IMG/VR virus record: IMGVR_UViG_3300038825_001395
DNA: 64,000 nucleotides
From: an uncultured virus (IMG/VR IMGVR_UViG_3300038825_001395)
Taxonomy: Duplodnaviria; Heunggongvirae; Uroviricota; Caudoviricetes
Direction: 5' to 3' (one strand)
This document shows, piece by piece, positions 13,923-64,000 of this stretch. The notes beneath the pieces are model-generated. The model made no database searches, was not told where the DNA came from, and saw only the letters and a program-made list of their open reading frames with translations. The translations under genes and the position numbers were made by a program. How positions within the stretch are numbered: the first letter of the stretch is position 1; each line of letters begins with the position of its first letter.

Positions 13923-14945
13923 TTATTCTTCATCATCTTCTTCTATTAGTTGAGCTTCAGATAAACATCCTCTAGCAACTGCTGTATGAGCATCTTCTAT
14001 ATGAATAATTTCTGAAATAGGTATTGGAAACTCATCTTGGTCAAACTGTTCATTAAACACATCCAAGAATCCTTTAACCAATGAAGTTCCACCACCGATA
14101 ACAATAGGAACAGCATTAGGAAAATTAGGAACATTTTCAACACCTTCAAACTGAACCTTTAGGTTAGTCAAAAGATAGTTAATTAGGGCACCATAATAAG
14201 AACGGATAGCGATAAGAACATTAGCCTCATCCGTTTCTTCTTCATAAATATTTTGATAAGTAGCAGAAGATAAGTCAAGTGTAGTTGATGTTTCTTTAAT
14301 ATTAGTTACCTTAGCTTTTGATACTCCTGTATCCATAGCAACATTTTCATCAACCCAATCACCACCACGGCTTACACTAAAAGATAGGGCAGTCATCCCT
14401 TGATACATAACTGCTATGTTACACATACCAGCACCCATTGAGATGGCTACACCAGTTAGTTGAGTATCAACCAACCCTTCATATCCAATCGCAACTGCCT
14501 CCTCTATCTTTTTCACATTGTATCCGTATTGTTCTATTATCGTTCTCAATACATCTTCGTGATATGATACTTCCCTTTTAACATCAATAGGTTTAGATGG
14601 AATGCAATAAACACAAGTTTCTCCATCTTTAGCATCACCCAACAACTCTCCGATTATGGCGTTTAGAACTGGTAAGGCATCTTTCTCTGTAGGATTTAAT
14701 AGACCACTTTTCATCGGTCTTTTAAGTTCGGCTGTTGAGAATATTTGAGCATAGTTGAAAGCGTGTTGTCCAACTATATGAACTTTACCTGCTTTCTCTA
14801 CGAAAGGAATCCCTTGTCGTTTTAACATTCTCTTGACTTGGTTCACCTCCCCATCAACAGTTAAGAATGCATTTCTTTGTTTTTTTACTAGCTCTTCTGT
14901 AGCAGCAATATAGAATGATGTACCACAATCTAAACCTTTTGCCAT
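13923..14945 (-). CDS. Actin-like ATPase (MreB/ParM/FtsA superfamily)
   Basis: Phosphate-1 GLDCGTS, connect-1 IEEAVAIG, phosphate-2 ISMGAGMCNI, adenosine IVIGGGTS, connect-2 AVARGCL. Confidence 0.85.
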   Translation of the reverse strand: MAKGLDCGTSFYIAATEELVKKQRNAFLTVDGEVNQVKRMLKRQGIPFVEKAGKVHIVGQHAFNYAQIFSTAELKRPMKSGLLNPTEKDALPVLNAIIGELLGDAKDGETCVYCIPSKPIDVKREVSYHEDVLRTIIEQYGYNVKKIEEAVAIGYEGLVDTQLTGVAISMGAGMCNIAVMYQGMTALSFSVSRGGDWVDENVAMDTGVSKAKVTNIKETSTTLDLSSATYQNIYEEETDEANVLIAIRSYYGALINYLLTNLKVQFEGVENVPNFPNAVPIVIGGGTSLVKGFLDVFNEQFDQDEFPIPISEIIHIEDAHTAVARGCLSEAQLIEEDDEE

Positions 14946-28700: not shown

Positions 28701-28805
28701 TTTAGAAAGTTTAGAGCCACCCTTGATAGTTCCATCACCAGCAACTATACCCATCTCATCTATGACGGGTTTGGTTATTTCTTCTATTAGTTTTTTTAAG
28801 CTCAT
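25752..28805 (-). CDS. Multidomain protein: HD phosphohydrolase, HxGH nucleotidyltransferase and RNA/DNA-ligase-like nucleotidyltransferase
   Basis: HPEGNVLKHT..FHDIGK..YGHE (HD, CCA-enzyme type); GGRFQPFHSGH..ISGTKTR (cytidylyltransferase fold); EKTDGQN..ARNKG..EGLVFK..K (ligase motifs I, Ia, IV, V). Confidence 0.75.
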   Translation of the reverse strand: MSLKKLIEEITKPVIDEMGIVAGDGTIKGGSKLSKIKKMKKKGHTSVPYGSGYKKVDEIAVRPKPKKFRDIYDALPSALKKRVYNLKNYDQRRDAHPEGNVLKHTIAVTNRALKTGDIDFALSALFHDIGKDSTAKLHPKKGFWTHYGHEKVSAQLVKKYATWIKSMGGDVDTIHYIVKQHMRMKVFDKMKWTKQDKMSKEKHFGKLQKFTKFDRGGRGIKEINKTLDLHRESVVYSNVDNGDSVSNLKEEKNIKKVVGVFGGRFQPFHSGHLATYKWLSKQVDEAYITTSDIKKPPRHPMNFKEKVRHMVKVGIPKNRIVMEKSPYVAKNLLNKFDPKTTAVVYVVGGKDAGRLGGKYFKPYTKDMKGFDEHGYIITAPQVGNISGTKTRDMLGNPKVDDKEKVKFFKKTFGYYDKGVYNMMTNKFKKLYEVYRGLLESTGTQSDGVDDGPGFISSLKSYLLRGEKEAGRLGWEIAKNIIDDENYYSQEFDIPKYPNGPIGSVSYGPAGAASPSAANDLDLVGSKLWNHWLDHIDMILKNQDYEYTDKLKKSRKSVLKHSKNTLDQLEKEEPTDTDQDRGNEQHDEYDIVKEVYSLTSNLERNGKELLLMGGAYGHMNHPFDDKELTFKDLKKIIELGLGGQLNREDNVTEKTDGQNLMISYKDGKLIAARNKGHLKNKGETALTIKDVENKFKGRGSIRDAFVYAMRDLSKAIGALSKKQQDKIFGNGSKFMSLEVMWPASENVVNYDITELLFHGAIEYDDNGRPIGQAKDSARMLQGMIKQVNQHIQKHYKISKPNFVTVPKHQDFGKMKKKFHGRLSKLQSQYALKDNDTLGLYHQRFWEEYIFNAAKQFKYKIPANVLKRLTMRWAFFDKSYSIRDMKATIKNNKFLEWTLVTEKLDHARMVKDNMKPFEELFFEVGAEIMKNMDGWLAVNPAKSVQNMRKKLKAAISDIRSGGDLKKLNKLKIQLDRLNAIGGFDAIVPTEGLVFKYNGNIYKFTGAFAPINQITGLMFF

Positions 28806-44346: not shown

Positions 44347-47300
44347 TTACATTTTCCTAATCATACATTTTATTAAGTTGGAATCTCCATCGCAACTTTC
44401 TAATGCTTGAGCAATAACTTTTCCAAATAAATCCTTCTTCAATAAATATCCTCTTTTAACAGATTTACCATGTCCTATTTTATCCGAGGTTACAATGTAA
44501 TCTCCGACATTTACTTTACCGGTAACTAATACAGGTTCAGCACCTAATACTATTGGTTCATCTTTTCCTTTTTTAATTACACCCATAACAAGTTCATCTT
44601 CATTTTTATCACACGGAACTAAACCATCTTCTTCCCAACTTACAATTGTTCCCGTTGGGTTGTCTCCAATCTTTTCTGTTCTTAATCCTGTCTCAAATAC
44701 ACCACCAGTTGTTGTTTGAACAGCAAAAACATCTGAAAATCTTAAAGCTGCAGTTCCTAATGTTGCTTGATTATCAACACTTGGTCTTATTAAAGTTGTA
44801 CTACTACCACCCAACTGAATAAAGGTATTGTCAGGCACAACAATTTTATTTGAGTCTCTATTACCACCACCTCTAATCTCAACACTCTTAGTATCTTTAG
44901 CAGAAATATAAGTGTTCCCATCAGATATTCCAGATATTATCATATAATCACTAGAACCCATAAATCCTGTTTTCATTCCAACATAACCTGCGAATGTTGT
45001 ATCTCCAAGTTCAAGTAATGATCCTGATCCTGCTCTCAAAGCACCAAACGAACCGGTTGAGGTTGCTGAACCACTTACATTACCTGTAACATTTACATCA
45101 TCCTCTAATGAAATCACACCACCTTCATTAACAAGTCTTAAATTACTCCCATCATAGTAAATTTGAGCATCGGAATCGGCATCAGTAACTAATCCAGTTC
45201 CAAATACAAGTTTTGTATTGTCTTGAAATTTTAATTGATCTGCTGATTGATCCCAACTTATATATCTGCCAGCAGTATCTCCGTAAAATCTAACATCAAC
45301 TCCGGTTCCACTTACACCAAATGTTGTGTTTCCATCAATCTGAACAGTTCCGTCTATATCAACATTATCTAAATTTGTTGTTCCATTAACATCAATATCA
45401 CCTTCCAAGTCTATATCACCACCAAACGTCCCATTGGAATCAATTATCAACTCACCAAACGAACCAGTTGAGGTTGCTGAACCACTTATTGTAGAAGCAG
45501 TTAAAAACTCTACATTACCTGAAGCATCTATTGACATATGAGTTGCATCACCTTCAATAAAATTTATAGAACCTCCACTTTGTCCACTTCCGATGTTTAT
45601 ATTATTTGAGCTATCTAATCCAATTACTCTTCTTTTTGTTCCTCCAGAATCTTTTCCTTCATAGTGTTGATTGTTGTCAATTAAAATTGGATTACCTACA
45701 ACATGAAGTTTTCTTTCAGGAGCAGTTGTGCCGATGCCGACCTTATCACCATCAAATGACATTATAGTAGCATTAACACCTGACCTTGCATCATTTAACC
45801 GCCTAAAATTGAGTTTATCCGCTACAGAAACAATATCAAACGCTTGACTATTAGAAGTTGCACCAGTATCTTGTAGCACTACTCTTCCTTGAGTTGAGCC
45901 TATTAATAAGATAGCCGAATCTGCACCAGTAATGTGTAGTGGATACGCTGGACTTGTTGTGCCGATGCCTAATTTATCAGCAATAAAACCATGACCAAAC
46001 GAACCAGTTGAGGCCGCTGAACCACTAATGTTCCCACTCTGAACATTTAATCCAGTTCCATTTGGTATTACCACACCAGCAGAAGTATTTAAGTTTATAT
46101 TAGCACCATAGTTATTACCTAAAGTAATTACAGCACCAGTTGTTAATGAAAATAAAGTTCTTGAGTTAGTTATATCTTTAATTGTAAATACATCACCGTG
46201 TTCTGCTAATTCATATTTTTCACGAACACGAACCGAACCAAACGAACCGGTTGAAGTTGATGAACCACTTATTATAGTTCCAGCAAATTTATGAATTGTT
46301 CCAGCTGGCTTACCATATTGTATTGAGTTATAAGAATTATCATAACCAACAGTTAATTCATCAGTACCAGGTTGTCTTCCTATAGATATAGCACCAAATA
46401 AATGAACCCTACCACCAAAGTAACCATAACCACTAGCACTAACCGTTCCTTCTACATTTATACTATCATATATACTTCCACTAATTATACCATCAACTGT
46501 TAAATTATCATTACCAGGATCAGATGTCCCACCGACATGAATTCCACCTAATGTAACTATACTAGAATTACTATTTAGTGATTTAAAAAATCTAATTTCA
46601 TCACCTAAACCATATCGAAACATCTTTGTGCTTCCGGAATAAAAGTTCATACTATCAGTACTATTATCCCAAACAATTTTAGCAGCCTCTATTTCAGTTC
46701 TATGACCAAAGTATATACTACCACTATTATCGTTTTTACTTTGAATTCCAATGTGAGAACCACCATCTATATCAGAAACAAATAATCTTGTATCCGCAAT
46801 AGGATCAGCCATTACGGTTGAATAATTATCCTCAAAAATATGAATTGGTGCTTTTGGATTTACAGTTCCTACACCTAATTTATTATCAATATATCCAGCA
46901 CCAAACGAACCAGTTGAAACGGCTGAACCACTTATTGATGTTCCCACTAATCTTAAAAGTTCAGTTCCATTTGGTGTAAAAGATAAATAATTATTTGCAC
47001 TACTTCCTAATATTTTTGTATTTGAATCACCAAACTCAAGAGCAACACCACTCCCCAATGTTACATTTCCACTACCATCTATAACAAAATGAGCATCACT
47101 TGCTCCGCCACTCCCCTCACCAATAAAAAATTCTGTTCCATCAAATCCACTAACATCACTATCGGTTAATCCAGCATACCATTTAGCAGAACCAGCAGTT
47201 AGGTATTTTACTTGAGATAAATTACCAGTTGCACCTCTATCTAATTCAATATAAGCATGGTCACTTGAATCAACTTTTATAGCAGCACCAGCTCCGACAA

Positions 47301-50300
47301 TATCTAACATTCTAACTGGACTTGTTGTGCCTATGCCTAAATTATTAGCAATAAAGCCATGAGCAAACGAACCGGTTGAGGTTGATGAACCACTTACTTG
47401 TTGAATATTTTTTATACTATTGACGGCATCAAAATCCATATCACCACCAATAATAACACCCCCACCAGAATCATTTTGTAGTCGTAAAGAACCAACACTT
47501 GTGTTAATACTATCTTGGTCAATAGTCATATAGTTAGAACTAAAACCGGATCTTTCTATTCTTATACCATCACCAGGACCACCAACACCACCAACTATAT
47601 GAAGTGTTGTTGCTGGATTTGTTGTTCTAATGCCTACTCTATCAGCAATATGAGCTTCAGCAAACGAACCGGTTGAGGATGCTGAACCACTTATTCGTGT
47701 TGTTGAAGCTCCAAATTCTGCAGTATTACCGGTTAATGTAAAACCTGGTGCTGAACTAGCAGCAGCAGTGAATGCAAATCTGTTAAGAGCATGACTGTAT
47801 TGTATCATCCCAATATTGTTATCATCAGGATCACCAAAGAAAATACCACCTATTTTATTATTAGGTGTGAGTATTGAAATACCACCATCATTATCATTTT
47901 CAGCAACTATCTCATCTGCACTTGCATGAGCAACAACTGAACCAGCAGTTGCTGTATGGGAGTGAAGTGTTCCATCAGGAGTTGATGTGCCGATGCCTAC
48001 TCTTCCTGTATTTCCTCTTATTACAAATTCTGTACCAGAAGCTATGTCAGCATTTCTTGATATAGAAAAGTTTTCAGCACTTGTTACTCCAGCATACCAA
48101 TCTTCAGAAGCATTTTTAAAATGTACTGCTGCATTTGTTGTACCACTTCTTTCTATTCTAAAGTTATTTGCAGTTGATGATGAAAGATGTAATTGTACGG
48201 CAGGACTTGTTGTGCCGATGCCGACTTTTCCACCACTAGCAACTCTTAAAACTTCACCATCAATCTGATTTCCTAAAACAAAATGTTCTTCATTTACACT
48301 TCCACCAGCTATAAATCCTAAGTAACCATCACCACCATTTTTTTCTAATCTAAAATGTATTAAATTATGTGGTTGAGTTGCACCAGTATTTGTATTTTCT
48401 AGTCTTAGCATAGCTTTACCATAAGCAGCAGTATCGTACTCATCAGATTCATTTTTAGCTATTGTTATTGGATAGTTAGTAGATGGAGTTGTCGTGCCGA
48501 TGCCGACATTTCCCGATGATAATACAGATATATTGGTAGTTGCTGCTTCAGCTGATGGACCAAAAGAGGATATACCCCCTTCAGCGACAACGTATGCCGA
48601 AGTATCATTATCCGCTACCCGTAATTTTGCTCTGTTAGTTCTTGATTGTATCTTTAGTCCAACTTCACCACCACCCTCACTATTGAATATAGCAGTTTTA
48701 GTTAAACCAGATGTAGAAACACCTAATTGTAATCCAACTGTTGGATTTGTTGTGCCGATGCCTAAATTATCAGCAATATGAGCAGTACCGAACGAACCAG
48801 TTGATGTTGATGAACCACTTATTGTATTTCCAAGAAACGTATGAGTATCGTCAGCACTATCTCCAAATATAGTTGAACCACTTAATGACTGATATTCTAT
48901 AGAAGTGACTGATGAAGATACAATAAAGTTTTGAGCAGTTATGTTTCCTACTATATCTATGTTACCTGTTCCGGTAATATCATTACTATTAAGGTCTAAG
49001 TCACCGCCTAGTTGTGGTGTTGTATCTTCTACGACATTTGATATACCACTTCCACCACTTCCACCAGCAGCTAATGAGGCTGATGTAAAGTTTCCACCAC
49101 CAACCATGAGATGACCGAATGAGCCGGTTGAGGTTGATGAGCCACTTACATTATTAAATGTTCCTAAAAAATTATGAATTACATCTGCGTCTTTTCCATA
49201 TTTTATCTCTGTCCAATAACTAGCTCCACCTAATAGTAAAGTAGTAGAGTTTGACGCTATAATATTAGAAGTTGCAGTTCCATCGTTTAATTGTGTAGTT
49301 CCTCCTAAAATAGTAATACCATCAATTTCAAGATTACCTTGAACTTTATCAGCAACAACCAATGAACCAAACGAACCGGTTGATTGGGCTGAGCCACTTA
49401 CCAATCCACCACTACTTCCAAGTAAAGTTAGTGTGTCTTGACGAACAGAAAGAGTATTATTACTACCAGTTCCAAAATGAATACCGGTAGCTTTTGTAGG
49501 ATCATTTTCGTTATAAGGATTACCAGATGAACCTGAATTTATTAATATAGATACCCATTCGTAGATACCATCACCAATTCCATTTGGTCCAAAATCATTT
49601 CTTTTGTATAGTTGATCAAAAAATCCATTGTAACCAGTAGTTAATTGTTTACCTACAAAGTGATTATTAGCAGTAGTAGGACCTATTGAATCAAAAAATG
49701 GATTAAAATTAGCATTTGAACCAGTTGTATATACATTTAAATGTTCATTTATTTTAGAACCAGCGGTTGTTAGACTATAGATAGTATTAGCACGAAAATC
49801 TGCTCGGTCATCTCTAGCATCTATTTCAAAACCAGCATTTTGACTTGAGTCTCCAGCAAACATTGAAGCAGTAGCAAATATATCAGTATTGACCACCCTT
49901 TCTGAAAATAAAGATGTTTGACCTATTTCATATCCACCGATAGTACCATCAGTAGCAGTTATTGAACCACTTAAAGTCATAGTGTTATTAGCAGGATCTA
50001 AATGAAAAAGAGAAGAACTTATTTCTATGTTTCCACTACTAGCACTTATAAATTGACTTGTCTCACTTCCAATAAAAAATTTATTTGTTCGTATATCTAA
50101 TTCACTTGGATTGGTTCTAAATCTAAAAAAACTTTCACTATTAGCAACCAATTCTAAACCAACTCCACCCAAAGAATAATCATCTGTTATATCATCTTTA
50201 ACAGAACCGGAATACATTAATATACCAGGACCCAATCCAAGAGAAGCACTTGTAAATCCTTTGTAATCTACGGTTGATAGTTCTGCTGATTTCTTACCCG

Positions 50301-51276
50301 AAAATGTAAATCCCTTTCCAACTTCTCTACCAACACTTAACGAACCGGTTAATAGGTTATCTGTTTTTTCTACAAAGAAAGGAGCAGAATCAAATGTTAT
50401 AAATGATGATGTTACCTCAACTATCTCACCTTGTCTATCTTTATCTAGGTATTGTGCTAATTGTTTTGACGGACTTAAAAATCTTAATCTAAATTTTACA
50501 GGTGTGTTTCTTCTAAATGTTTTTGGTGTCGGTATCTTTGTGGTATTTGTTATTGGGTTTAGACCAGAGGTAAGAGTTTGACTATCTGTTTCAAACGAAC
50601 CACTTGTTAATGGATATGATGTTATCACATCAAAATCATCTGTTTTAGATTTTTGTTCGTTGTATGCTAATTCTACAGATTCAATCTTTCCACCATTAGT
50701 TTCTAAATCAGAAAGAGTTACATTAATAAAACTTCTTTTATAAACTGTATCACTATCATCAAACTCAACCGTTTCACTTATACTTAAATTTGTTTGAATA
50801 TCGGATGGCTTTGCTAATACAAGTGGCGATGTATTTGGAAAATCTTTTCTTATATCATAGGTAAAAGAAGTTCTTACATTATATATTCCTTTCCAATCAT
50901 TTGGTATTTCTTCACCATCTAACTCACCCATTACATATAAGAAAGCAGGTCCGTCAGCAATCTCATCTGCTGTTCTTAATGGATCTTTCTTTATCCAAAT
51001 AAATCCATTACCAGCGCCACTTAATTCTTCTATATCTATAAGGTTAGAAAATATTACAGTTCCACGAGAGTCAACAAACTCAAAAACAATATTGGATAAG
51101 TTTTTAAGAAGTGGTTCGTCTTCAGGATCATTAAAGGTTATAGAAAAAGGATGTTTTCCATAACTTAGGGTGCTGGGTAGACCAGTTATACTAAAGTATT
51201 TGGTATCGTTATCCTGTGTTTCAAGGAATACATCTTTCTTTTTGAGGTCTAGTACCTGACTAAATAGTTCTGCCAT
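44347..51276 (-). CDS. Very long modular tail fibre / baseplate-anchored fibre (2309 aa)
   Basis: Ten SGSxxSTGSF(G/A) junction repeats, VGIGT repeats, C-terminal GDYIVTSDKIGHG..GKVIAQALE chaperone-like domain. Confidence 0.8.
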   Translation of the reverse strand: MAELFSQVLDLKKKDVFLETQDNDTKYFSITGLPSTLSYGKHPFSITFNDPEDEPLLKNLSNIVFEFVDSRGTVIFSNLIDIEELSGAGNGFIWIKKDPLRTADEIADGPAFLYVMGELDGEEIPNDWKGIYNVRTSFTYDIRKDFPNTSPLVLAKPSDIQTNLSISETVEFDDSDTVYKRSFINVTLSDLETNGGKIESVELAYNEQKSKTDDFDVITSYPLTSGSFETDSQTLTSGLNPITNTTKIPTPKTFRRNTPVKFRLRFLSPSKQLAQYLDKDRQGEIVEVTSSFITFDSAPFFVEKTDNLLTGSLSVGREVGKGFTFSGKKSAELSTVDYKGFTSASLGLGPGILMYSGSVKDDITDDYSLGGVGLELVANSESFFRFRTNPSELDIRTNKFFIGSETSQFISASSGNIEISSSLFHLDPANNTMTLSGSITATDGTIGGYEIGQTSLFSERVVNTDIFATASMFAGDSSQNAGFEIDARDDRADFRANTIYSLTTAGSKINEHLNVYTTGSNANFNPFFDSIGPTTANNHFVGKQLTTGYNGFFDQLYKRNDFGPNGIGDGIYEWVSILINSGSSGNPYNENDPTKATGIHFGTGSNNTLSVRQDTLTLLGSSGGLVSGSAQSTGSFGSLVVADKVQGNLEIDGITILGGTTQLNDGTATSNIIASNSTTLLLGGASYWTEIKYGKDADVIHNFLGTFNNVSGSSTSTGSFGHLMVGGGNFTSASLAAGGSGGSGISNVVEDTTPQLGGDLDLNSNDITGTGNIDIVGNITAQNFIVSSSVTSIEYQSLSGSTIFGDSADDTHTFLGNTISGSSTSTGSFGTAHIADNLGIGTTNPTVGLQLGVSTSGLTKTAIFNSEGGGEVGLKIQSRTNRAKLRVADNDTSAYVVAEGGISSFGPSAEAATTNISVLSSGNVGIGTTTPSTNYPITIAKNESDEYDTAAYGKAMLRLENTNTGATQPHNLIHFRLEKNGGDGYLGFIAGGSVNEEHFVLGNQIDGEVLRVASGGKVGIGTTSPAVQLHLSSSTANNFRIERSGTTNAAVHFKNASEDWYAGVTSAENFSISRNADIASGTEFVIRGNTGRVGIGTSTPDGTLHSHTATAGSVVAHASADEIVAENDNDGGISILTPNNKIGGIFFGDPDDNNIGMIQYSHALNRFAFTAAASSAPGFTLTGNTAEFGASTTRISGSASSTGSFAEAHIADRVGIRTTNPATTLHIVGGVGGPGDGIRIERSGFSSNYMTIDQDSINTSVGSLRLQNDSGGGVIIGGDMDFDAVNSIKNIQQVSGSSTSTGSFAHGFIANNLGIGTTSPVRMLDIVGAGAAIKVDSSDHAYIELDRGATGNLSQVKYLTAGSAKWYAGLTDSDVSGFDGTEFFIGEGSGGASDAHFVIDGSGNVTLGSGVALEFGDSNTKILGSSANNYLSFTPNGTELLRLVGTSISGSAVSTGSFGAGYIDNKLGVGTVNPKAPIHIFEDNYSTVMADPIADTRLFVSDIDGGSHIGIQSKNDNSGSIYFGHRTEIEAAKIVWDNSTDSMNFYSGSTKMFRYGLGDEIRFFKSLNSNSSIVTLGGIHVGGTSDPGNDNLTVDGIISGSIYDSINVEGTVSASGYGYFGGRVHLFGAISIGRQPGTDELTVGYDNSYNSIQYGKPAGTIHKFAGTIISGSSTSTGSFGSVRVREKYELAEHGDVFTIKDITNSRTLFSLTTGAVITLGNNYGANINLNTSAGVVIPNGTGLNVQSGNISGSAASTGSFGHGFIADKLGIGTTSPAYPLHITGADSAILLIGSTQGRVVLQDTGATSNSQAFDIVSVADKLNFRRLNDARSGVNATIMSFDGDKVGIGTTAPERKLHVVGNPILIDNNQHYEGKDSGGTKRRVIGLDSSNNINIGSGQSGGSINFIEGDATHMSIDASGNVEFLTASTISGSATSTGSFGELIIDSNGTFGGDIDLEGDIDVNGTTNLDNVDIDGTVQIDGNTTFGVSGTGVDVRFYGDTAGRYISWDQSADQLKFQDNTKLVFGTGLVTDADSDAQIYYDGSNLRLVNEGGVISLEDDVNVTGNVSGSATSTGSFGALRAGSGSLLELGDTTFAGYVGMKTGFMGSSDYMIISGISDGNTYISAKDTKSVEIRGGGNRDSNKIVVPDNTFIQLGGSSTTLIRPSVDNQATLGTAALRFSDVFAVQTTTGGVFETGLRTEKIGDNPTGTIVSWEEDGLVPCDKNEDELVMGVIKKGKDEPIVLGAEPVLVTGKVNVGDYIVTSDKIGHGKSVKRGYLLKKDLFGKVIAQALESCDGDSNLIKCMIRKM

Positions 51277-58346: not shown

Positions 58347-59605
58347 TTTTTGCAACTCCAATATCTAGCTTTATGTCTTGGTCCTGGAGTATCACAATTA
58401 TGTCTTGCTCTAAAGTTTCTACGAGCATCAGGATTAGACTTACGGATTCTCATAGTTTTACCTTTAGCAGAACTACCACCGTGTCCAAAATTTACCTTGA
58501 CAACATTACCTTTATCATTTTTTACATATACTTTAAACTTCTTTACATCACCTTGCATTGGCTTACCAAGTTTTACTTTTCTACCTTGATATTCTGCCTC
58601 TACTAAACCTGTCATTGTGTATCCAAATGAACCATCTTCATTCCATATGTCATATGATTCTTTTTTTACACAATTAGGATACTTTTTACCAAACATAGTT
58701 TTCATACCCTTTTGTGTATATCCTTTCCAACAGGCTTCACATAAACATTGATTTTCATTTACACCTTCTTTTTTAGATTTATTACCCCAATTCTTAGCAC
58801 CGACCTTACGGCACTTTACAAGAGCACCACTTGCGTAAGCTGATGGCCAGACATCATAACGGGCTTTTACCTTATGATAACAAGCATCTTTTTTTTCATA
58901 TATCTCTTCTGTTTGTTTAGCACATTCATCATGTTGACATAGTTTCATTACATTCTCCTGCTTCTTTCGTCCAGCACAATGTGCTTTCTGACTAAACCCC
59001 TTTGGGTTATTACAATCAATACTTTTTTTATATTTATCAGACCAACCTTCATTTCTTTGTTTGGTTTTTTTCTTCATCTTATTAATAAACTTTCTATACA
59101 CAGCAGCCTGAGATGACTTACCCATCTCTCTGGCTCTTTGTTCCATAGCAACAGCTGCCTGTATTTTATGGGCATGAGACTTACCACTACCTTTTATTTT
59201 AGATACTGACTTTTCAGCATCCTTAACAGTAGCAAACTTCAATCCCTTTATTGTACCTTTTGGATTTTCATCCGTATACAAATCTGAATGACTTGGTGAG
59301 TTTCTATGTTGACCTTTCTTACGAGGTTTTCTTGGAGCTTCACCCAAAAGAGAATATCCCAAGATAGCCATAGCTTTATCTCTTGGAGAATCCCCTCTAA
59401 ATTTTTTAACTACTTTTTTGTAATTCTTCTTTATCATATCTGTAGCATCTTTAGTAGACCTTCCATATTGTGTGAGAATTTTATGTATTGTTTTTATTTC
59501 AGACTCACTTATCTTTCCAATCATACCTAATGGTCTAGGACCACATCTCTTTCTGTATTGTGCTACTGTCTCGGTATTACTTTTATGTCCACAAGGTAAA
59601 GACAT
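58340..59605 (-). CDS. Basic Cys-rich modular polyprotein
   Basis: Modules SDLYTDENPKGT, WSDKYKKSIDCNNPKGFSQKAHC, DACYHKVKARYDVWPSAYASG, CWKGY..PNCVK and AEYQGRKV..YWSCKKW, separated by xxE linkers. Confidence 0.65.
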   Translation of the reverse strand: MSLPCGHKSNTETVAQYRKRCGPRPLGMIGKISESEIKTIHKILTQYGRSTKDATDMIKKNYKKVVKKFRGDSPRDKAMAILGYSLLGEAPRKPRKKGQHRNSPSHSDLYTDENPKGTIKGLKFATVKDAEKSVSKIKGSGKSHAHKIQAAVAMEQRAREMGKSSQAAVYRKFINKMKKKTKQRNEGWSDKYKKSIDCNNPKGFSQKAHCAGRKKQENVMKLCQHDECAKQTEEIYEKKDACYHKVKARYDVWPSAYASGALVKCRKVGAKNWGNKSKKEGVNENQCLCEACWKGYTQKGMKTMFGKKYPNCVKKESYDIWNEDGSFGYTMTGLVEAEYQGRKVKLGKPMQGDVKKFKVYVKNDKGNVVKVNFGHGGSSAKGKTMRIRKSNPDARRNFRARHNCDTPGPRHKARYWSCKKW

Positions 59606-59952
59606 TACTTCTTTGGTTTGGTATTAACTCTTATTGGTTTCTTACCACCACCCTTTAAATCCGATGTTCCACCTCTACCAGCTTTATTTTGAGCTGCTCT
59701 TTTTCTACGAGTTGCTGATTGTTTTTGTTTTTTGGTCATACCAGCAGCTTTTGATTTAGGAACACATTTAGCATAGCCTCTTGTTTTACCACTAGTTCCA
59801 CAAGGGGGATGTTTACCGGATTTATCTTTCTTACCGATGTTAACCCATTTATCAGAAAACCATTTCTTTAGATTTTCATCTACAAGGTTTCCACAATGAA
59901 TACAGGTATTTTCATCAAAAATACTTTCTACTATTTTTCTTAAATGTATCAT
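59605..59952 (-). CDS. Basic protein with MIHLRKIVE leader
   Basis: LKKWFSDKWVNIG..PPCG..KCVP..RRKR module. Confidence 0.6.
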   Translation of the reverse strand: MIHLRKIVESIFDENTCIHCGNLVDENLKKWFSDKWVNIGKKDKSGKHPPCGTSGKTRGYAKCVPKSKAAGMTKKQKQSATRRKRAAQNKAGRGGTSDLKGGGKKPIRVNTKPKK

Positions 59953-59997
59953 TACATCTATAAATATAATGTAAAAAAGAAAGGTTACTAATTAGTA

Positions 59998-61062
59998 TTA
60001 TTTTAATATTGTTACTTTAGTTTTTTTGTAATTGGATACTAAAAAGTATATGCCACTTGGAACATCAGATGTATTCCAATTGTAATTTTTATTTATAATT
60101 TTTTCTTCAACTAACCTACCATTCATATCATAAATACCAATTAACCCATTAGCTATTATATTAACATTACTATTTGATGGATTAGGATAAGCAGATAATT
60201 TTGGTATTAATTTATTGAAAGTATTTTGGTCTAATACTGATTCTAAAAATGCTATAGCTTGTTGTTGATTACCACCAATCACTATCTGAACTAATCTTAT
60301 TACATCAAGAATATTCATCACACCATCGCCATTTACATTACCAGCTTCATATCCACATTGACTATCATTGTCTCCTAATATAATATCAACTAATATTAAA
60401 ATGTCTGTTAAACTTATAATTAAATCTCCATTTACATCTCCACCAGTCCATATTAAATTATTACAAGCATCACATACATCACCAATCTCATCACCATCCG
60501 TATCTACTTGATTTGGGTTATACCCATCAATACAATTATCATTATCATCAAATATACCATCGGCATCAGTATCTAAAACTAAATTTTCTATTCCTTCATT
60601 TATAGAATTTATTATCATCGTTTGATTAAAACCGGATTCGGAAAGTAATACTTCACCATCACCACCTATGACAATATTATGCGGGATATAACCTGTTCCA
60701 AATAATCCATAGATATTACTAACATCATCTAAGATAGGATATGTTAAACCAAAGGCTGTTCCCCATTCCTCACAACTATAAGGTTGATTCCATTCACTAC
60801 CTATAGCAATCACCTCTAATACTGATTCATCATAATCTTGAAATATATCTTCTGTAAGTGGAGCCTCCACTTGACAACTTGGTCACCAACTGGTAAATAG
60901 ATTTATCCAAACAACCTTATCCCTACCATCGGTATCATAATACCAAGTGCCTTCACCATTTTGACATATAGGAGCAGAGAAGTTATTTACATAATCTCCT
61001 ACTTGATATGTTTGTCCTATTAATATTTGTAATGTAAATATCAGTAATATTATTTTATTCAT
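59998..61062 (-). CDS. Exported selenocysteine-containing redoxin (UxxC) with TSP3-like repeats, dockerin and T9SS-like C-terminal domain, 354 aa
   Basis: ATG 61062 (overlaps the upstream stop), signal peptide MNKIILLIFTLQILIG, ..VWINLFTSW-TGA(60885-60883)-PSCQVEAP.. in frame with ORF 59998-60870; DTDADG..DNC, GDVNGD..DI twice, AYPNP. Confidence 0.85.
60853..60885 (-). promoter_or_regulatory. Bacterial SECIS-like hairpin 3' of the in-frame UGA
   Basis: UGA CCAAGU UGU-C-AAGUGG-AGGCU-CCACUU-ACA; G-containing apical loop begins 16 nt after the UGA. Confidence 0.75.
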
Positions 61063-61450
61063 AAGCTCTCATTTTCTTTTTTATAACTAAAATGTAATTA
61101 TCTATTACATCTGTATTGACTTTATCCTTTTCCATCTTTTCTTTTTTAGCTACCAACTTACCATAAACTTTCTGTAAATCTAAAAGAGATAATGACCTCA
61201 TAGATTTTCTGTAATATAATTTATTGAGAGCTTCATCTTCAGCTTCTGCTCCACGAACTCCAGCAACTGTTGTTACTTTTTCTATCTCATAGTCTTTAAT
61301 AGTAACTTCTTTAATTTCTTCCCACACGGTGTTTTCCCACATGGCATCTAAATCAAGTTCTTCTGTTGTGTCTTGACTAAAACTCAAGTTTAACAGGATA
61401 CTCAGCCAAAATAAAGTTAAGACTATCGTAGGTATAATACCAAATCTCAT
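61055..61450 (-). CDS. Exported / membrane-anchored hypothetical protein
   Basis: Signal peptide ending SFS-QD; VTTVAGVRGAEAE motif; start uncertain (74 nt overlap with the pilin gene). Confidence 0.55.
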   Translation of the reverse strand: MRFGIIPTIVLTLFWLSILLNLSFSQDTTEELDLDAMWENTVWEEIKEVTIKDYEIEKVTTVAGVRGAEAEDEALNKLYYRKSMRSLSLLDLQKVYGKLVAKKEKMEKDKVNTDVIDNYILVIKKKMRAYE

Positions 61451-61796
61451 TATTCATTCTCCTATGATAAATTGCTGGATTACTTAAAATTGATGTTGAA
61501 AACTTCCATTCATTATCAAATAGAGGAAGTCCTTCTGTAAGTGTTATATGATACCCACGAGTTCTTCCAACTAAAGTTAAGGGATTATATGGATATTTTT
61601 CAACTCCATTTACTTCTAATTCATACTCAGCGTATTCTTCTAAATCTTCCCAAAGTTTGTTAATAAACTTTTTTTCTAATTGTAGTAATTCAAGTTCTAA
61701 TTTTTTTTGCATTTTAGGTAATTGAATTACAGAAAGTATTCCTATTATCACAATTACCATAACTAATTCAATCATAGTAAAGCCTTTAGAATACAT
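61377..61796 (-). CDS. Type IV pilin-like protein
   Basis: Class III signal MYSKG|FTMIELVMVIVIIGILS. Confidence 0.85.
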   Translation of the reverse strand: MYSKGFTMIELVMVIVIIGILSVIQLPKMQKKLELELLQLEKKFINKLWEDLEEYAEYELEVNGVEKYPYNPLTLVGRTRGYHITLTEGLPLFDNEWKFSTSILSNPAIYHRRMNNEIWYYTYDSLNFILAEYPVKLEF

Positions 61797-62242
61797 TAAA
61801 TTTCTCCGATTACTTCTTCTTCATAAGATGGGCTATCCTCATCCTCATCAACTATAATTATCATCCGTGTTACAAATCCCGTTTCAGATGTGTCGGATTG
61901 AACATAATAATAAAATGGATTGTTATTAGAATTCATCGGAAGATCACCACTAAACAAATCATTAACCATTCTACCATCTGATAAAACTTGAGCCTTAAAC
62001 TCTAAATCCATTTGATTGTTTTCTGGTTGTGGTGGAAAGTTAGGGTTTCCTATCATATGTCCTTCTTGCCAATACATCATAAATGTTGTTTTAACAATCT
62101 CCATATTTGTGATATTAGATTGTCTTTGTGTAGCAAGAACATTAGATTGGTAGGAGGGGATAGCGAATGACATCAATATCCCCACCAACGAAATAGAAAC
62201 AACTAACTCTGCCAATGTGAAACCATCATTGGAGTTTCTCAT
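61796..62242 (-). CDS. Type IV pilin-like protein
   Basis: MRNSNDG|FTLAELVVSISLVGILMSFAIPSY. Confidence 0.88.
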   Translation of the reverse strand: MRNSNDGFTLAELVVSISLVGILMSFAIPSYQSNVLATQRQSNITNMEIVKTTFMMYWQEGHMIGNPNFPPQPENNQMDLEFKAQVLSDGRMVNDLFSGDLPMNSNNNPFYYYVQSDTSETGFVTRMIIIVDEDEDSPSYEEEVIGEI

Positions 62243-62262
62243 TGGGTTCTCCTTTTTATTTA

Positions 62263-62703
62263 TTAAAGAGCTACCCTTTCACCGATTGAACCGATAGCAG
62301 CATTATCTCCATCTTGAACACCTTTATCATAGTCCCAAGCCCAACGAGTATTATCATTTCTCTGATGGGTAATCTGTAATGTTACTAAGTTATATGTCCA
62401 TTCTCCATCTGTATCTGCATCATCTGTATCAGTAGCATCATATCCAGCAGGAGTTTCTTCTAATCCATCAAATGGATGATCTGGCCATACCTTACGACCT
62501 TCTGAAAATAGTTGTTCCATAGCATAGTTGGATAGTCCAGCTTGTATACTAGCGATTATAGCATCTTCAGCAGCTTCTTCAGCTTTTGTTACAGTTCCAA
62601 GATATCTTGGTACAGCAACTGCTGATAAAATACCTAAAATTATTGTTACCATTATTAGTTCAATTAATGTGAACCCTTTGTTGTCTTTTATTGTGTTAAA
62701 CAT
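62263..62703 (-). CDS. Type IV pilin-like protein (major-pilin-like)
   Basis: MFNTIKDNKG|FTLIELIMVTIILGILSAVAVPRY; strong AAGGAG SD. Confidence 0.92.
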   Translation of the reverse strand: MFNTIKDNKGFTLIELIMVTIILGILSAVAVPRYLGTVTKAEEAAEDAIIASIQAGLSNYAMEQLFSEGRKVWPDHPFDGLEETPAGYDATDTDDADTDGEWTYNLVTLQITHQRNDNTRWAWDYDKGVQDGDNAAIGSIGERVAL

Positions 62704-62714
62704 TTCTGTTCTCC

Positions 62715-63350
62715 TTACGGTTGTAGTTTCTTTTTAAAGTTAGCAGGTGATTCTAAATCAGCCACATAAAGTATTGGTGAATAAGAGGATTGTCCACTTC
62801 CACCACCAGCGATTACTGTGTAAATATAGTGTCCATCCTGAAAAGGTGATTTAACAGCGTTTCCACCAAATTCATTTAGGAACTCTTCAGCTCCAACGGT
62901 TTCGCTGAAAGAACCATCATCATCTGGATCTTCAGCAGTATTGACACTAGCACCCGTTGGCATTGGATTAGCAGGATTTTGTGTTCCAAATATAGAAGCC
63001 CATTTAGATGCTTCTGCACTTTCAAATGTTTGGAATACATTAAGTCCAGCTACCACAGAACTTTCATCTTGGTATCCACCACCATCAGGAACAGATTCAT
63101 TGTATTTAACTTGACCTGGAAATCTTCCACGACCTTCACTAGTTACTTTTTCATTATAAAAGTTATTAGCAGATTTTACAATCTTATCAATATCAGCTAA
63201 TGTCTTTTTTTCTTTAGCACCCTCTCCTACGCCAGAGAACTTAGGTGCAGCAGTAGTAGCGAGTGTCGCCATCATCGCTGTTGTTACAGCGAATTCAGCG
63301 AGTGACTGACCACTTCTACCTTTTAATTTTTTTCTTAGCTTTTGAAACAT
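62715..63350 (-). CDS. Type IV pilin-like protein with an atypical G|QSLAEF site
   Basis: Basic leader MFQKLRKKLKGRSG|QSLAEFAVTTAMMATLATTAAPKF; Glu at +5 and Pro at +22 as in pilins. Confidence 0.75.
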   Translation of the reverse strand: MFQKLRKKLKGRSGQSLAEFAVTTAMMATLATTAAPKFSGVGEGAKEKKTLADIDKIVKSANNFYNEKVTSEGRGRFPGQVKYNESVPDGGGYQDESSVVAGLNVFQTFESAEASKWASIFGTQNPANPMPTGASVNTAEDPDDDGSFSETVGAEEFLNEFGGNAVKSPFQDGHYIYTVIAGGGSGQSSYSPILYVADLESPANFKKKLQP

Positions 63351-63387
63351 TTTGTTTCTCCTATGTTAGTTGTTCTACACTATATAA

Positions 63388-63422
63388 TACAAAAACTATA
63401 CCAAAGTACCTGTTTTTTACAA
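63388..63422 (-). promoter_or_regulatory. Candidate sigma54 (-24/-12) promoter overlapping a sigma70-like promoter for the pilin cluster
   Basis: TGGTATAGTTTTTGTA (GG-N10-GT) at 63403-63388; also TTGTAA-N16-TATAGT with a TGn extension. Confidence 0.5.
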
Positions 63423-63476
63423 GTTTTTTTTAATTATTTTTTTAGTATTGATATTGTTGAGGTTAGGGGTATAAAT

Positions 63477-63505
63477 AAAAAAACCCCACTATGTGTGAGG
63501 TTTTT
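63477..63505 (-). terminator. Intrinsic terminator
   Basis: Minus strand AAAAACCTCAC-ACATA-GTGGGGTTTTTTT downstream of 63548-63922. Confidence 0.7.
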
Positions 63506-63547
63506 AAAATGATACAACTGTATTTATTTGTTACAAATTATGTATCA

Positions 63548-63922
63548 TTAAAATACATCTTCTGCTAATACATCATCTATAGCACTTTTTATTTCTTTAT
63601 TACTGGCATCTATCTCACCATCCATATCACCTTTCCAAGTTTCTTTCTTAGAACCATCATAGAAAAGAGCCATAGATGGAAAGTTTCTAAATCTAAGTTT
63701 CTTTATTACTTTTGGTGCTTCTTCACTTTTAACATAAAGTATTTTACAATCTTGATATCCCTTTACACCCTTTATAAGTGATTCATCAAAATCAGCGTCT
63801 TGCCATTCTGATGTAAATATGGCTACGACTATACCACCATTAATTTTTTCTTTAAAGTTCTTATCATTTATTTGTCCGTATGACACAGACAAAAATAATA
63901 ATAAAGTAAATATAAATCTCAT
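63548..63922 (-). CDS. Exported thioredoxin-like protein lacking CxxC
   Basis: Signal peptide; INDKNFKEKI..VVAIFTSEW (Trx N-motif), then QDAD instead of CxxC; RFRNFPSMALFYDG cis-Pro loop. Confidence 0.65.
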   Translation of the reverse strand: MRFIFTLLLFLSVSYGQINDKNFKEKINGGIVVAIFTSEWQDADFDESLIKGVKGYQDCKILYVKSEEAPKVIKKLRFRNFPSMALFYDGSKKETWKGDMDGEIDASNKEIKSAIDDVLAEDVF

Positions 63923-63931
63923 AAGTAACTC

Positions 63932-64000
63932 CTATTTGTCTTTCTTCCTTCGTTCTAGGTCTTTAATATCCGATCTTAATTCTTTTATAAGTTCTTCATA
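63932..64000 (-). CDS. 3' end of a coiled-coil protein (runs off the window edge)
   Basis: ..YEELIKELRSDIKDLERRKKDK* with TAG 63934-63932. Confidence 0.45.
   Translation of the reverse strand, partial: YEELIKELRSDIKDLERRKKDK

Follow-up and report, generated by a model that had tools for sequence, protein, structure and literature searches.

The window, i.e. the whole analysed stretch of 64,000 nucleotides, carries on its minus strand (61055-63403) one gene run composed of a sigma54-type promoter element, four prepilin-like genes (A, B, C, and D) and a gene for an exported protein, E. Together with its neighbours, the run is arranged as follows:

59998..61062, minus strand: gene of a selenocysteine-containing redoxin, an optional insert; 354 aa with U60 encoded by the TGA at 60883-60885
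60853..60877, minus strand: SECIS-like hairpin, starting about 11 nt after the UGA
61055..61450, minus strand: exported protein E, 131 aa, no known family
61377..61796, minus strand: pilin D, 139 aa, G|FTMIE
61796..62242, minus strand: pilin C, 148 aa, G|FTLAE
62263..62703, minus strand: pilin B, 146 aa, G|FTLIE
62715..63350, minus strand: pilin A, 211 aa, class-III-type leader G|QSLAEF
63389..63403, minus strand: sigma54-type element TGGTAT-N5-TTGT, 53 nt upstream of the A start codon
63479..63505, minus strand: terminator-like hairpin and T run; 11 pairs, 4 of them GC, then TTATTTATAC
63548..63922, minus strand: exported thioredoxin-fold-like protein, 124 aa, no CxxC, just upstream of the pilin operon
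63932..64000, minus strand: last 22 codons and stop of the membrane protein P0002 (223 aa), whose full length was read from the related viral contig L001

At the gene junctions, TAATG is common to C and D, and the overlaps amount to 74 nt between D and E and 8 nt between E and the redoxin gene; the terminator-like hairpin separates the upstream gene from the pilin operon. The original prediction of four consecutive genes with class III signal peptides, linked through overlapping junctions to an exported protein and a redoxin, corresponds exactly to these minus-strand ORFs. Its statement that prepilin peptidase, PilB, PilC, and integrase are lacking also holds, as none of the A24 peptidase, T2SSE, T2SSF, and integrase families was matched by the 55 window ORFs of at least 90 aa (PHROGs and Pfam). 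Five related records (78-126 kb, 42-68% complete) gave no T2SSE above the cut-off and no A24 at all; the window and these partial viral records together yielded neither a prepilin peptidase nor a motor ATPase or platform protein. The prediction was silent on the Marinimicrobia origin of the genes, the sigma54-type promoter, the nature of D as a copy of B, and the MshEN-like gene, all considered below.

The window belongs to a large, distant T4-like myovirus from the ocean. Its PHROG matches include sheath, tube, capsid, portal, terminase, prohead protease, endolysin, primase, and an SbcC-like protein, and its capsid protein is 50-51% identical to the counterparts in Microcystis phage Mel-JY01 and Flavobacterium phage immuto. 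The T4-like structural and replication genes agree with the lytic type assumed for this phage, and no lysogeny genes were seen in the window. Within the window tRNA genes are absent, and blastn of 59900-64000 against GenBank phages returned no match.

Close cellular homologs of the pilin-run genes exist in MAGs, which could suggest a cellular fragment or a chimeric assembly rather than phage DNA; this explanation is refuted by several observations. The module lies inside 33 distinct related IMG/VR contigs in the same phage-flanked arrangement, the flanks being homologs of the window primase, RuvC-like, and SbcC-like genes; these viral contigs reach 125.6 kb, and two of them carry the capsid gene together with the pilin module. 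A 4591-nt contig from an independent seawater run covers 58985-63575 with 10 differences and crosses every junction, the base composition is even over the whole window, and at least 94% of the sampled words of the stretch are present in 14 DNA runs. The independent bridging contig, the viral contigs, and the co-occurrence with capsid therefore demonstrate that the run is truly phage-borne, and the check for a chimera or a host flank recommended with the original prediction came out in favour of viral origin. Contig L001, with 100% protein identity to the window through A-D, was used to read beyond position 64000, and it also informs on the presence or absence of the redoxin.

A class III signal peptide consists of a short basic leader ending in Gly, with Glu at +5 and about 20 hydrophobic residues, and all four proteins A-D have this structure (NKG|FTLIEL in B, NDG|FTLAEL in C, and SKG|FTMIEL in D). 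B, C, and D exceed the 21.2-bit cut-off of Pfam N_methyl (E values of 1.2e-7, 6.2e-6, and 6.3e-6, respectively) and also pass NCBIfam TIGR02532. They match PHROG 3433 “pilin” (moron / host takeover), as well as PHROGs 27437, 11596, 13280, and 11263, through the N-terminal methylation helix, the matches being confined to the first ~25-60 residues. A tblastn search with B in 50,697 deposited phage genomes found only two Vibrio phages, over 31 residues. The nearest relatives are cellular: B is 54-64% identical to pilins of Marinimicrobia MAGs, and the phage B orthologs (n = 28) form in the tree a single group nested among the MAG sequences. The phage C profile matches the host pilin located downstream of B (E from 1e-29 to 8e-45), and the phage D profile finds its best match in host B-type pilins, nearly over the full length (E 1e-30). 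Since D and B of the window are 30% identical over 122 aa (E 7e-16), D is, as judged from these similarities, a diverged copy of the B type.

Pilin A represents a class that matches no family of Pfam (including PF07963), NCBIfam (including TIGR02532) or PHROG. Its leader, KGRSG|QSLAEFAVTTAMMATLATTAAP, has Gln at +1 instead of Phe or Met, and Gly-1, Glu+5, and Pro+22 are invariant in all 37 aligned sequences. The protein is composed of a conserved N-terminal part (~85 aa), a hypervariable middle, and a conserved C-terminal part (~60 aa). In its model (pLDDT 73), a helix occupies residues 18-72 and is followed by C-terminal strands; 27 of the 30 top VIA-align neighbours are pilins or pseudopilins, but with Z not exceeding 5.2, and Foldseek against PDB gave nothing at E ≤ 0.001. 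A is homologous to the 3-4 tandem paralogs located downstream of pilC in host pilus loci and groups in the tree with the last of them, the copy adjoining B (SH-aLRT 99). Paralogy, the invariant residues, and the model thus indicate that A is pilin-like, and its promoters and paralogy make it a candidate for the major pilus subunit. The class comprises at least 4680 proteins for which no Pfam model exists, and tblastn with A found no match among the 50,697 deposited phage genomes.

Genome loci matched by the phage genes (n = 17) include five titled Marinimicrobia or Neomarinimicrobiota and three with other names (Balneolaceae, Nitrospinaceae). The host locus begins with genes for an A24 peptidase, T2SSE with MshEN, a sigma54 activator, and T2SSF, followed by four A paralogs, B, C, and further pilins; in the MAGs this appears as pilD-pilB-activator-pilC and then the A-type paralogs with canonical TGGCAC-N5-TTGC promoters, B, and C. 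Fucosidase, GH109, and sugar-transporter genes are located nearby, and the locus looks like that of a type IVa/MSHA-like pilus. This Marinimicrobia pilus supercluster (L052/L064/L066, i.e. G007 contig C5; G011 contig C33) is the evident source of the phage cassette: identity to the phage proteins is 55-72% for A, 54-64% for B, 32-43% for C, and 53% for E, and both the A-B-C order and the promoter element are homologous. Gene order and similarity demonstrate that the phage holds the contiguous front end of the host pilin string, namely the promoter, the last A paralog, B, and C. The phage is devoid of the Marinimicrobia peptidase, ATPase, activator, platform, secretin, the other three pilins, and a ~630-aa lectin-domain protein, whereas D is added and E is placed directly behind the pilins. 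Two checks proposed earlier, synteny between related phages and host pilin loci and the pilin phylogeny, were thereby answered: the A-B-C order is common to both, and phage A and B branch, as described above, with the last host paralog and inside the MAG sequences.

Exported protein E retains its signal peptide in relatives and has a conserved core motif, VAGVRGAEAEDEAL..LYYR. No family in Pfam, NCBIfam or PHROG and no usable match in the ESM Atlas was obtained for it, its AF2 model is helical with low confidence (pLDDT 65), and its 164 representative relatives, all of 443 aa or less, show no informative fusions. The E profile matches four of the five host MAGs (E ~1e-47; 53% identity over 97 aa), where the gene terminates a string encoding AAA_22, DUF2914, a T2SSB-like protein, a secretin, cyclases, FG-GAP, TPR, and E. 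Judging by this homology, E is the counterpart of the last gene in the host secretin string, which is adjacent to the pilin string.

Two further proteins are encoded upstream of the operon. The minus strand of the window starts with YEELIKELRSDIKDLERRKKDK*, identical to the end of P0002, which is built of an N-terminal MshEN-type domain, a proline-rich linker, one TM helix, and a coiled coil. Its N-terminal 66 residues, used as a profile against PDB sequences, matched PilF 6f8l (1e-9), PilB 5zfr (5.6e-7), PilB 6olj/5tsg (E 5.8e-6), and the MshE N-domain 5htl (3e-3); hhalign of P0002 with the N-terminus of host PilB gave a probability of 61% (E 7.9e-5), and Pfam MshEN did not match the single P0002 sequence even at E ≤ 10. 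At the profile level, the P0002 N-terminus thus matches the N-domains of type IV pilus extension ATPases. The 124-aa thioredoxin-like protein (Pfam Thioredoxin E 7.9e-4, below the cut-off) has homologs upstream of A in many related loci; used as queries, neither it nor the 430-aa protein P0003 was found in the five host MAGs.

The redoxin gene reads through a single TGA (60883-60885) within W-U-P-S-C, and the product combines an AhpC/TSA-redoxin domain, a dockerin-like part, and a T9SS C-terminal sorting domain. The W-U-x-x-C motif with TGA is kept in the window, three other phage rows, and four host homologs. The SECIS-like hairpin has a GGAGGCUCC core, with pairing-preserving changes of the stem in the three other phage rows (two of the same sequence) and the four host homologs; its energy is unexceptional taken alone (z -0.29), and Rfam on 59900-64000 gave no SECIS family, only three sub-threshold chance matches. 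Host homologs share 46-52% identity with the redoxin, and in four of five MAGs they contain the in-frame TGA; SelB exceeds the cut-off in all five, and each host MAG contains 45-90 T9SS sorting domains. These comparisons show that the redoxin is a real bacterial selenoprotein derived from the host.

Since two independent gene captures, of the pilins and of a selenoprotein that needs the Sec and T9SS machinery of its host, point to the same bacteria, the phage probably infects SAR406 (Marinimicrobia). This is a strong assignment, obtained from sequence, for a T4-like phage group; SAR406 ranks among the main uncultured lineages of ocean bacteria, the phage group is abundant and lytic-type, and the A class is the probable major pilus subunit of these bacteria.

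The place of the redoxin in the operon should be reconsidered. The prediction that the pilins form one gene run with the selenoprotein is correct for this window but not for the module generally, as, among 33 related contigs, the redoxin adjoins E in just two and is located elsewhere in one more. In one sample, a redoxin-less form (depth ~223; joint 59998>61071) occurs alongside the redoxin-bearing form (~45). Absent from most relatives, and with both forms present in one sample, the redoxin cannot be retained as a part of the module.

The original prediction also allowed for T2SS pseudopili, in which case A-D would be pseudopilins of a piston exporting phage proteins such as E or the redoxin. 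GspG is indeed the best named NCBIfam match of B and C, a host pilin matches GspH, and the host string includes a T2SSB-like protein. However, the scores are 41.3, 31.1, and 27.1 bits for the GspG model (cut-off 88.85) and 23 bits or less for the GspH model (cut-off 80). The T9SS sorting domain indicates that the redoxin uses another export route, each MAG possesses a PilT-sized ATPase, and the host locus resembles type IV pili in its several A paralogs preceded by promoters, its sigma54 activator, and its large lectin-domain protein. We therefore regard the pseudopilin explanation as extremely improbable.

The canonical sigma54 promoter (TGGCAC-N5-TTGC) is defined by GG at -24, GC at -12, and a constant distance between them. 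Among 29 phage rows, 27 have TGGTA[CT]-N5-TTGT 42-84 nt upstream of A, and host A-type genes have TGGCA/TGGTA-N5-TTGC/T in the same relative place (22 of 23 rows). The element is thus homologous to host promoters occupying the same position upstream of orthologous genes. Spacing, GG, and TTG are kept in the phages, but the -12 GC is replaced by GT in all 27 copies, which departs from the strict consensus, whereas TTGC is present in 21 of 22 host copies; accordingly, the phage promoters are all TGGTA..TTGT in contrast to the usual Marinimicrobia form, TGGCA..TTGC. RpoN occurs in all five host MAGs, a Sigma54_activat protein is encoded inside the host locus, and no RpoN was found in the five related viral records. 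Expression of the pilin operon via host sigma54 is therefore probable, while the GT at -12 and the fact that TGGTATAGT is also readable as an extended -10 box count against a firm assignment. Due to T instead of C at -12 in every phage copy, control of the phage promoter may differ from that in the host, and this uniform C>T change offers a testable case of a phage re-tuning an enhancer-dependent host promoter.

By itself, the motif is not significant in the window, where TGGYAY-N5-TTGY has two matches against 1.2 expected; the second (48023-48037) is inside a gene, its count fits chance, and it was rejected. TATATAG was also rejected as a general phage promoter, as only two of its six minus-strand sites are upstream of genes.

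The module varies among relatives. Complete A-B-C-D-E is present in 14 of the 20 related viral contigs with an uncut module, and in 16 of them five genes are found when the A-B-B'-D-E form is counted; reduced modules consist of A-B-C only (two contigs), A-B-C-E (one), and A alone (one). This varying content implies that the parts may not act as one unit. Purifying selection acts on all five genes, the median dN/dS being 0.25 for A, 0.15 for B, 0.24 for C, 0.22 for D, and 0.33 for E.

We consider it rather probable that the run is a host-derived cassette of pilus subunits in a T4-like Marinimicrobia phage, and that the pili of infected cells are built with phage-made subunits. The phage prepilins would be cut by the host A24 peptidase in the infected cell and polymerised by the host PilB/MshE-PilC-secretin machine, so that pili would come to hold phage-specified subunits and have a changed surface. 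This change depends on the host peptidase and motor assembling the phage-made pilins. In A, marked divergence from the host version is confined to the variable, probably exposed middle, the helix and C-terminal assembly surfaces being nearly identical. By analogy with P-FimU, for which this was demonstrated by experiment, the most likely payoff would be that rival pilus-binding phages, or copies of the same phage, are blocked from adsorbing; sustained pili and adhesion while host transcription fails would be nearly as plausible a benefit.

Lytic marine phages commonly carry host genes that sustain a short-lived host function. The pilin genes may likewise serve for maintenance: fresh pilins would keep pili until lysis for particle attachment, polysaccharide foraging or DNA uptake, with no competition between phages involved. 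The almost identical assembly surfaces of A, from which its products should act as normal subunits, are in line with this explanation, as are the retained host-type promoter and the fucosidase, GH109, and sugar-transporter neighbours, which fit a particle- or glycan-associated lifestyle. However, pilins are usually stable, and maintenance leaves unexplained the extra diverged pilin D, the variable exposed region of A that is unlike the nearest host copies, and the nearby PilB-N-terminal-like membrane protein. We give this explanation a modest chance of being the principal one.

Alternatively, the phage pilins, assisted by E and the MshEN-domain protein, could block the host machine by jamming or capping it, leading to loss of pili, abolition of the receptor, and release of resources. 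Over-expression of a single minor pilin can disrupt assembly (PMC12952977), D is a diverged, shorter pilin of the B type, and the upstream protein, possessing only the regulatory N-domain of an extension ATPase, could titrate partners or ligand. But A, B, and C are strongly host-like across the assembly helix and C-terminus and evolve under purifying selection as in functional subunits; moreover, four genes exceed what a block needs, the known inhibitors being single small proteins. We hold poisoning of the machine to be very unlikely. The original prediction that the phage swaps or poisons host pili is thus narrowed to its first half, since replacement or remodelling via the host machine is still the best reading and poisoning is ranked as its rival.

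The same genes may also be viewed as a filament kit, including a major-type pilin of a class not described before, three more pilins, a periplasmic accessory protein, and a membrane-anchored version of the regulatory N-domain of the extension ATPase, which would specify a phage pilus with a new function. Under a sigma54-derived promoter, the -12 C>T change may loosen dependence on the host activator. This is quite unlikely in our opinion; if true, infected SAR406 cells could, until they lyse, be kept attached to particles or close to new hosts, or could capture DNA or nutrients, and receptor masking would not be the whole story.

The preferred reading, replacement of pilus subunits, has parallels among known systems. 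P-FimU of the F10-like prophages of Pseudomonas aeruginosa enters the pilus and blocks adsorption of phages that bind the pilus tip (Sztanko et al., Cell Rep 2026, PMC12952977), and the P-FimU promoter region is conserved among phages. It resembles the present case as a phage-borne homolog of a type IV pilus subunit relying on the host assembly machine. However, P-FimU is one minor pilin of temperate phages with a cultured host and a demonstrated function, whereas here four pilins, an accessory protein, and a host-type promoter belong to a T4-like phage of an uncultured host and have a predicted function. P-PilA-like proteins, described in the same publication for Xylella prophages and four groups of non-temperate phages, were proposed to alter the pilus receptor (PMC12952977); they are similar in being phage-encoded homologs of major pilins, virulent phages included, but are single canonical PilA-type genes, as opposed to the unannotated G|QSLAEF class with three more pilins. 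As is typical of P-FimU and P-PilA, the pilin genes of the cassette have homologs among the pilins of the phage's own host.

Aqs1, Tip, Zip, and PlzR are likewise phage proteins that alter host pili, which is understood as superinfection exclusion. They are small proteins binding the motor or its chaperone, in contrast to the module here, which supplies structural subunits. In view of P-FimU and P-PilA (PMC12952977), the generalisation that phages mostly inhibit the motor rather than supply pilins is outdated. Single phage-encoded pilins are already known and were shown to be functional only recently, as single genes in Pseudomonas prophages; what is added here is a multi-gene operon, i.e. a whole set of pilins with a host-type promoter element in a SAR406 phage group. 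This suggests that replacement of surface filaments is a broad phage strategy in nature rather than a peculiarity of Pseudomonas. In a literature search of limited coverage, we found no paper on pilin operons carried by marine or Marinimicrobia phages.

Contigs from RNA libraries, which can also contain DNA, overlap 60870-61053, 61326-61547, 61767-62246, and 62932-63612. One RNA-library piece of 681 nt runs across the terminator and the promoter.

PHROGs profiles matched a tail sheath, tail tube, baseplate hub, major head protein, portal, large terminase and prohead protease in the window, together with a holin, an endolysin, tail-fibre-like giants, a primase, a RuvC-like resolvase and an SbcC-like nuclease, and Pfam added T4 baseplate and gp15-like domains; every scanned ORF of at least 90 aa (n = 55) lies on the minus strand. 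The capsid protein shares 50-51% identity with Microcystis phage Mel-JY01 and Flavobacterium phage immuto, and 39% with Rhodothermus phage RM378. This gene content and the capsid likeness indicate that the window is part of a distant T4-like myovirus. As stated in the original prediction, it contains four consecutive genes with class III leaders, all of them seen in ORFs, while no prepilin peptidase, PilB/PilC-type, T2SSE, T2SSF or integrase family was matched among the window ORFs in Pfam or PHROGs. The four prepilin-like genes (A-D) and the gene E for an exported protein, together termed the module, have the following neighbourhood:

L001:6748-7419 (3' end = window 63932-64000), minus strand in the window: P0002, 223 aa, one TM helix, PilB/MshE-type N-domain profile match
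63479-63505, minus strand: terminator-like hairpin preceding the promoter element upstream of A
63389-63403, minus strand: sigma54-type promoter element TGGTATAGTTTTTGT, 53 nt upstream of A
62715-63350, minus strand: A, class-III-type leader G|QSLAEF
62263-62703, minus strand: B, class-III-type leader G|FTLIE, passes Pfam N_methyl and TIGR02532
61796-62242, minus strand: C, class-III-type leader G|FTLAE, passes Pfam N_methyl and TIGR02532
61377-61796, minus strand: D, class-III-type leader G|FTMIE, passes Pfam N_methyl and TIGR02532
61055-61450, minus strand: E, 74-nt overlap with D, signal peptide kept in relatives
59998-61062, minus strand: selenocysteine (Sec) redoxin, 8-nt overlap with E

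No library model in Pfam, NCBIfam or PHROG matched A, which belongs to an unannotated class of at least 4680 members having no Pfam domain. Across 37 aligned relatives from phages and hosts, Gly-1, Glu+5 and Pro+22 never vary; conservation covers the N-terminal ~85 and C-terminal ~60 residues, and the stretch between them is hypervariable, with indels. The AF2 model (pLDDT 73) has a helix at residues 18-72 followed by a C-terminal sheet; Foldseek returned nothing for it at E <= 0.001, and type IV pilins or pseudopilins make up 27 of the top 30 entries from VIA-align, with weak scores (Z <= 5.2). The invariant residues, the helix-then-sheet model and the pilin-dominated structural neighbours suggest that A is pilin-like, the structural scores themselves being weak.

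The possibility that the pilin run is an assembly chimera or a host flank, raised in the original prediction as the outcome that would overturn it, was not borne out. Queries with A and B yielded 38 loci on 33 distinct IMG/VR contigs, in which the module is flanked on one side by a homolog of the window's thioredoxin-like gene and on the other by homologs of its replication genes (primase, RuvC-like, SbcC-like and a giant 2309-aa protein). It is internal to some long viral contigs (for example, 46-63 kb of a 125.6-kb contig), and two related records hold both the module and a capsid homolog (55% identity). G+C is even along the window (0.28-0.39), with no break at the pilin region. Fourteen DNA runs from about six studies each contain at least 94% of the words sampled from 60000-63500. 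In one of them, an independent run not flagged as a possible source, a single 4591-nt contig covers 58985-63575 with 10 differences, spanning every queried junction, including 59950-60000. Past base 64000 the window continues as in the viral locus L001, where the gene whose end forms the window's first 22 codons is complete. Several independent lines of sequence evidence thus show that the run is genuine phage DNA, and a chimera is extremely improbable.

Host counterparts were sought with B as the query, using one genome per species. Among the 17 loci found, 5 are titled Marinimicrobia/Neomarinimicrobiota, 9 "uncultured bacterium" or "bacterium", and 3 carry other names. Three MAG loci (L044, L046 and L055), on contigs titled Balneolaceae and Nitrospinaceae, hold a Marinimicrobia-type pilin locus; two of these contigs are only 1.1-1.6 kb long, and the titles are probably binning errors in public records. 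The best-preserved host locus (L052), a 71.5-kb contig of the Marinimicrobia MAG G007, begins with an A24 prepilin peptidase (L052:1142-1942), a T2SSE ATPase that includes an MshEN domain, a sigma54 activator and T2SSF; after these come four paralogs of the A type, one homolog each of B and C, another three pilins and a protein with a lectin domain. The order A-B-C is homologous in phage and host. Phage and host copies are 55-72% identical in A, 54-64% in B and 32-43% in C.

In the A tree, every phage sequence groups with the last host paralog, the one adjoining B (SH-aLRT 99), and within this group phage and MAG rows interleave (three label changes are needed, of which the starred branches force only one). 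In the B tree, MAG sequences surround a single cluster (support 87) of the 28 phage orthologs. D was considered as the counterpart of the later host pilins and this was ruled out, its profile matching the host B-type over near full length (E 1e-30); within the window, D and B are 30% identical.

E has no homolog in the host pilin loci; searched against five entire host MAGs, its profile matches four (E about 1e-47), the proteins being 53% identical across 97 residues. The G007 copy closes a minus-strand string that starts with an AAA_22 protein, a DUF2914 protein, a T2SSB-like protein and a secretin, continues with a CHASE2-cyclase, a cyclase, an FG-GAP giant and a TPR protein, and stops about 3 kb from a divergently oriented pilD-pilB string. 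E, secretin and pilB are spaced likewise in a second Marinimicrobia MAG, G011. Since E comes from the secretin string and A-C from the pilin locus, the module is a composite of two parts of the host pilus supercluster.

The promoter element points to the same source. TGG[CT]A.-N5-TTG[CT] lies 29-75 nt upstream of 22 of the 23 host A-type genes (TTGC in 21/22), and the sole row without it has only 6 nt of upstream sequence. In the phage rows, TGGTA[CT]-N5-TTGT occurs 42-84 nt upstream in 27/29, the two exceptions being one contig seen twice. This shared position upstream of A shows that the element was inherited from the host; RpoN was detected in all five host MAGs and was not found in five related viral records. 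The C of the -12 GC is gone in every phage copy that has the element. In a review (PMC5095919), the -12 element is presented as the regulatory centre holding the closed complex, and DNA determinants that bypass the enhancer requirement are cited; given this role, the phage change could alter control. Alternatively, TGGTATAGT can be read as an extended -10 box.

Gene content was compared in the 20 of 33 related contigs in which the module is uncut by a contig end.

Gene content of the module in related viral contigs
A-B-C-D-E: 14 of 20
A-B-B'-D-E: 2 of 20
A-B-C-E: 1 of 20
A-B-C only: 2 of 20
A alone: 1 of 20

Among phage copies, pairwise dN/dS has a median of 0.25 for A, 0.15 for B, 0.24 for C, 0.22 for D and 0.33 for E, which shows that selection maintains all five genes. 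In one phage subgroup (L035:8434-8907 and L035:9352-9777, likewise L036-L038), a second, very diverged B-like pilin (B') replaces C, an extra 141-aa membrane protein stands between D and E, and TonB_C and VanZ-like proteins come next. L013, an 18.8-kb contig labelled GVMAG (giant-virus bin), has a single A-type homolog that is 72% identical over 197 aa, differs at the N-terminus and is surrounded by unrelated genes; this may be a mis-binned or recombinant fragment.

The pilins had also been placed in one gene run with a selenoprotein. This is true of the window and fails in most relatives: among the 33 related contigs, only 2 have the redoxin behind E, and 1 has it at another place. It is absent from L001, though L001 is protein-identical to the window through A-D. 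In sequencing run X8, a contig joining 59998 to 61071 with 8 other letters has a depth of about 223, compared with about 45 for the gene-containing contigs. The redoxin is an optional part, not fixed in the module. Its presence/absence is polymorphic within natural phage populations, and the insert alters the last codons of E (window vs L001).

Read with TGA as U, the redoxin gene encodes W-U-P-S-C in an AhpC/TSA-redoxin domain, after which come a dockerin-like segment and a T9SS sorting domain. In the redox motif the TGA takes the place of the first Cys, and a hairpin whose core is GGAGGCUCC begins about 11 nt further on. Motif, TGA and hairpin recur in three other phage rows (two with the same sequence) and four host homologs, the stem changes keeping the pairing. 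Homologs with an in-frame TGA (46-52% identity) are present in four of five host MAGs, SelB scores above cut-off in all five, and each of the five has 45-90 T9SS sorting domains versus none in 14 control genomes. These features mark it as a genuine selenoprotein gene, and it adds a further line of evidence, independent of the pilins, for a Marinimicrobia host.

The phage thus carries host-derived, selected, promoter-equipped pilin genes. Pilus machine genes were found neither in the window nor in five relatives that are 42-68% complete; the hosts carry a peptidase, two long T2SSE ATPases, one PilT-sized ATPase, a platform protein and 2-3 secretins. Host PilD would cleave the phage prepilins, and the host motor would assemble them into pili with a phage-specified exposed surface. 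Such remodelling of the pilus through the host machine is the explanation to which we lean, and within it, keeping rival phages out is rated somewhat more likely than simply keeping the cell piliated. PMC12952977 reports that pili can still function after P-FimU replacement and yet block the phages that bind them, and that PilA-like genes occur in non-temperate phages. Poisoning of the host machine by the phage products is improbable, and a pseudopilus serving secretion is more improbable still.

The principle of phage-encoded pilins is already known; what is new is scale and setting. Here a lytic-type phage of an ocean lineage that is uncultured combines four pilins, of which the first belongs to an unannotated class, with an accessory protein and a promoter element of host type. 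A was found in none of 50,697 deposited phage genomes. Our literature search met no description of a pilin operon in a marine or Marinimicrobia phage, Table S3 of PMC12952977 being a place where related cases might be listed, and pili are not mentioned in the passages considered from an early single-cell study of Marinimicrobia viruses (PMC4611503).

P0002, two genes upstream of the pilin operon, is kept in 14 distinct related contigs (17 rows, three contigs twice). Its first 66 residues gave N-domain profile matches to PilF (1e-9), PilB (5.6e-7 and 5.8e-6) and MshE (3e-3), and hhalign aligned it to the host PilB N-terminus (61% probability, E 7.9e-5). A putative role as a decoy, either for the partners or for the ligand of the extension ATPase, is offered here as a lead.

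Further upstream, beyond the window end, P0003 (L001:5156-6448) is a 430-aa exported aromatic-rich protein kept in relatives; it has no family match, was not found in five host MAGs, and could be an outer-membrane protein. The exported thioredoxin-fold-like protein at 63548-63922 (minus strand) lacks a cysteine pair where the neighbouring redoxin has U-x-x-C, and may be a redox-inactive relative. The 2309-aa ORF at 44347-51276 (minus strand), whose homolog stands beside the SbcC-like gene in relatives, has no Pfam or PHROG match. A 1017-aa protein (25752-28805, minus strand) combines an HD domain with a cytidylyltransferase-like domain and weakly matches a PHROG tRNA nucleotidyltransferase. 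Finally, a 340-aa protein (13923-14945, minus strand) matches Volactin (Pfam PF25216, E 4e-72) and, weakly, MreB_Mbl, which gives this T4-like phage an actin-like gene, located between its capsid region and its lysis genes.
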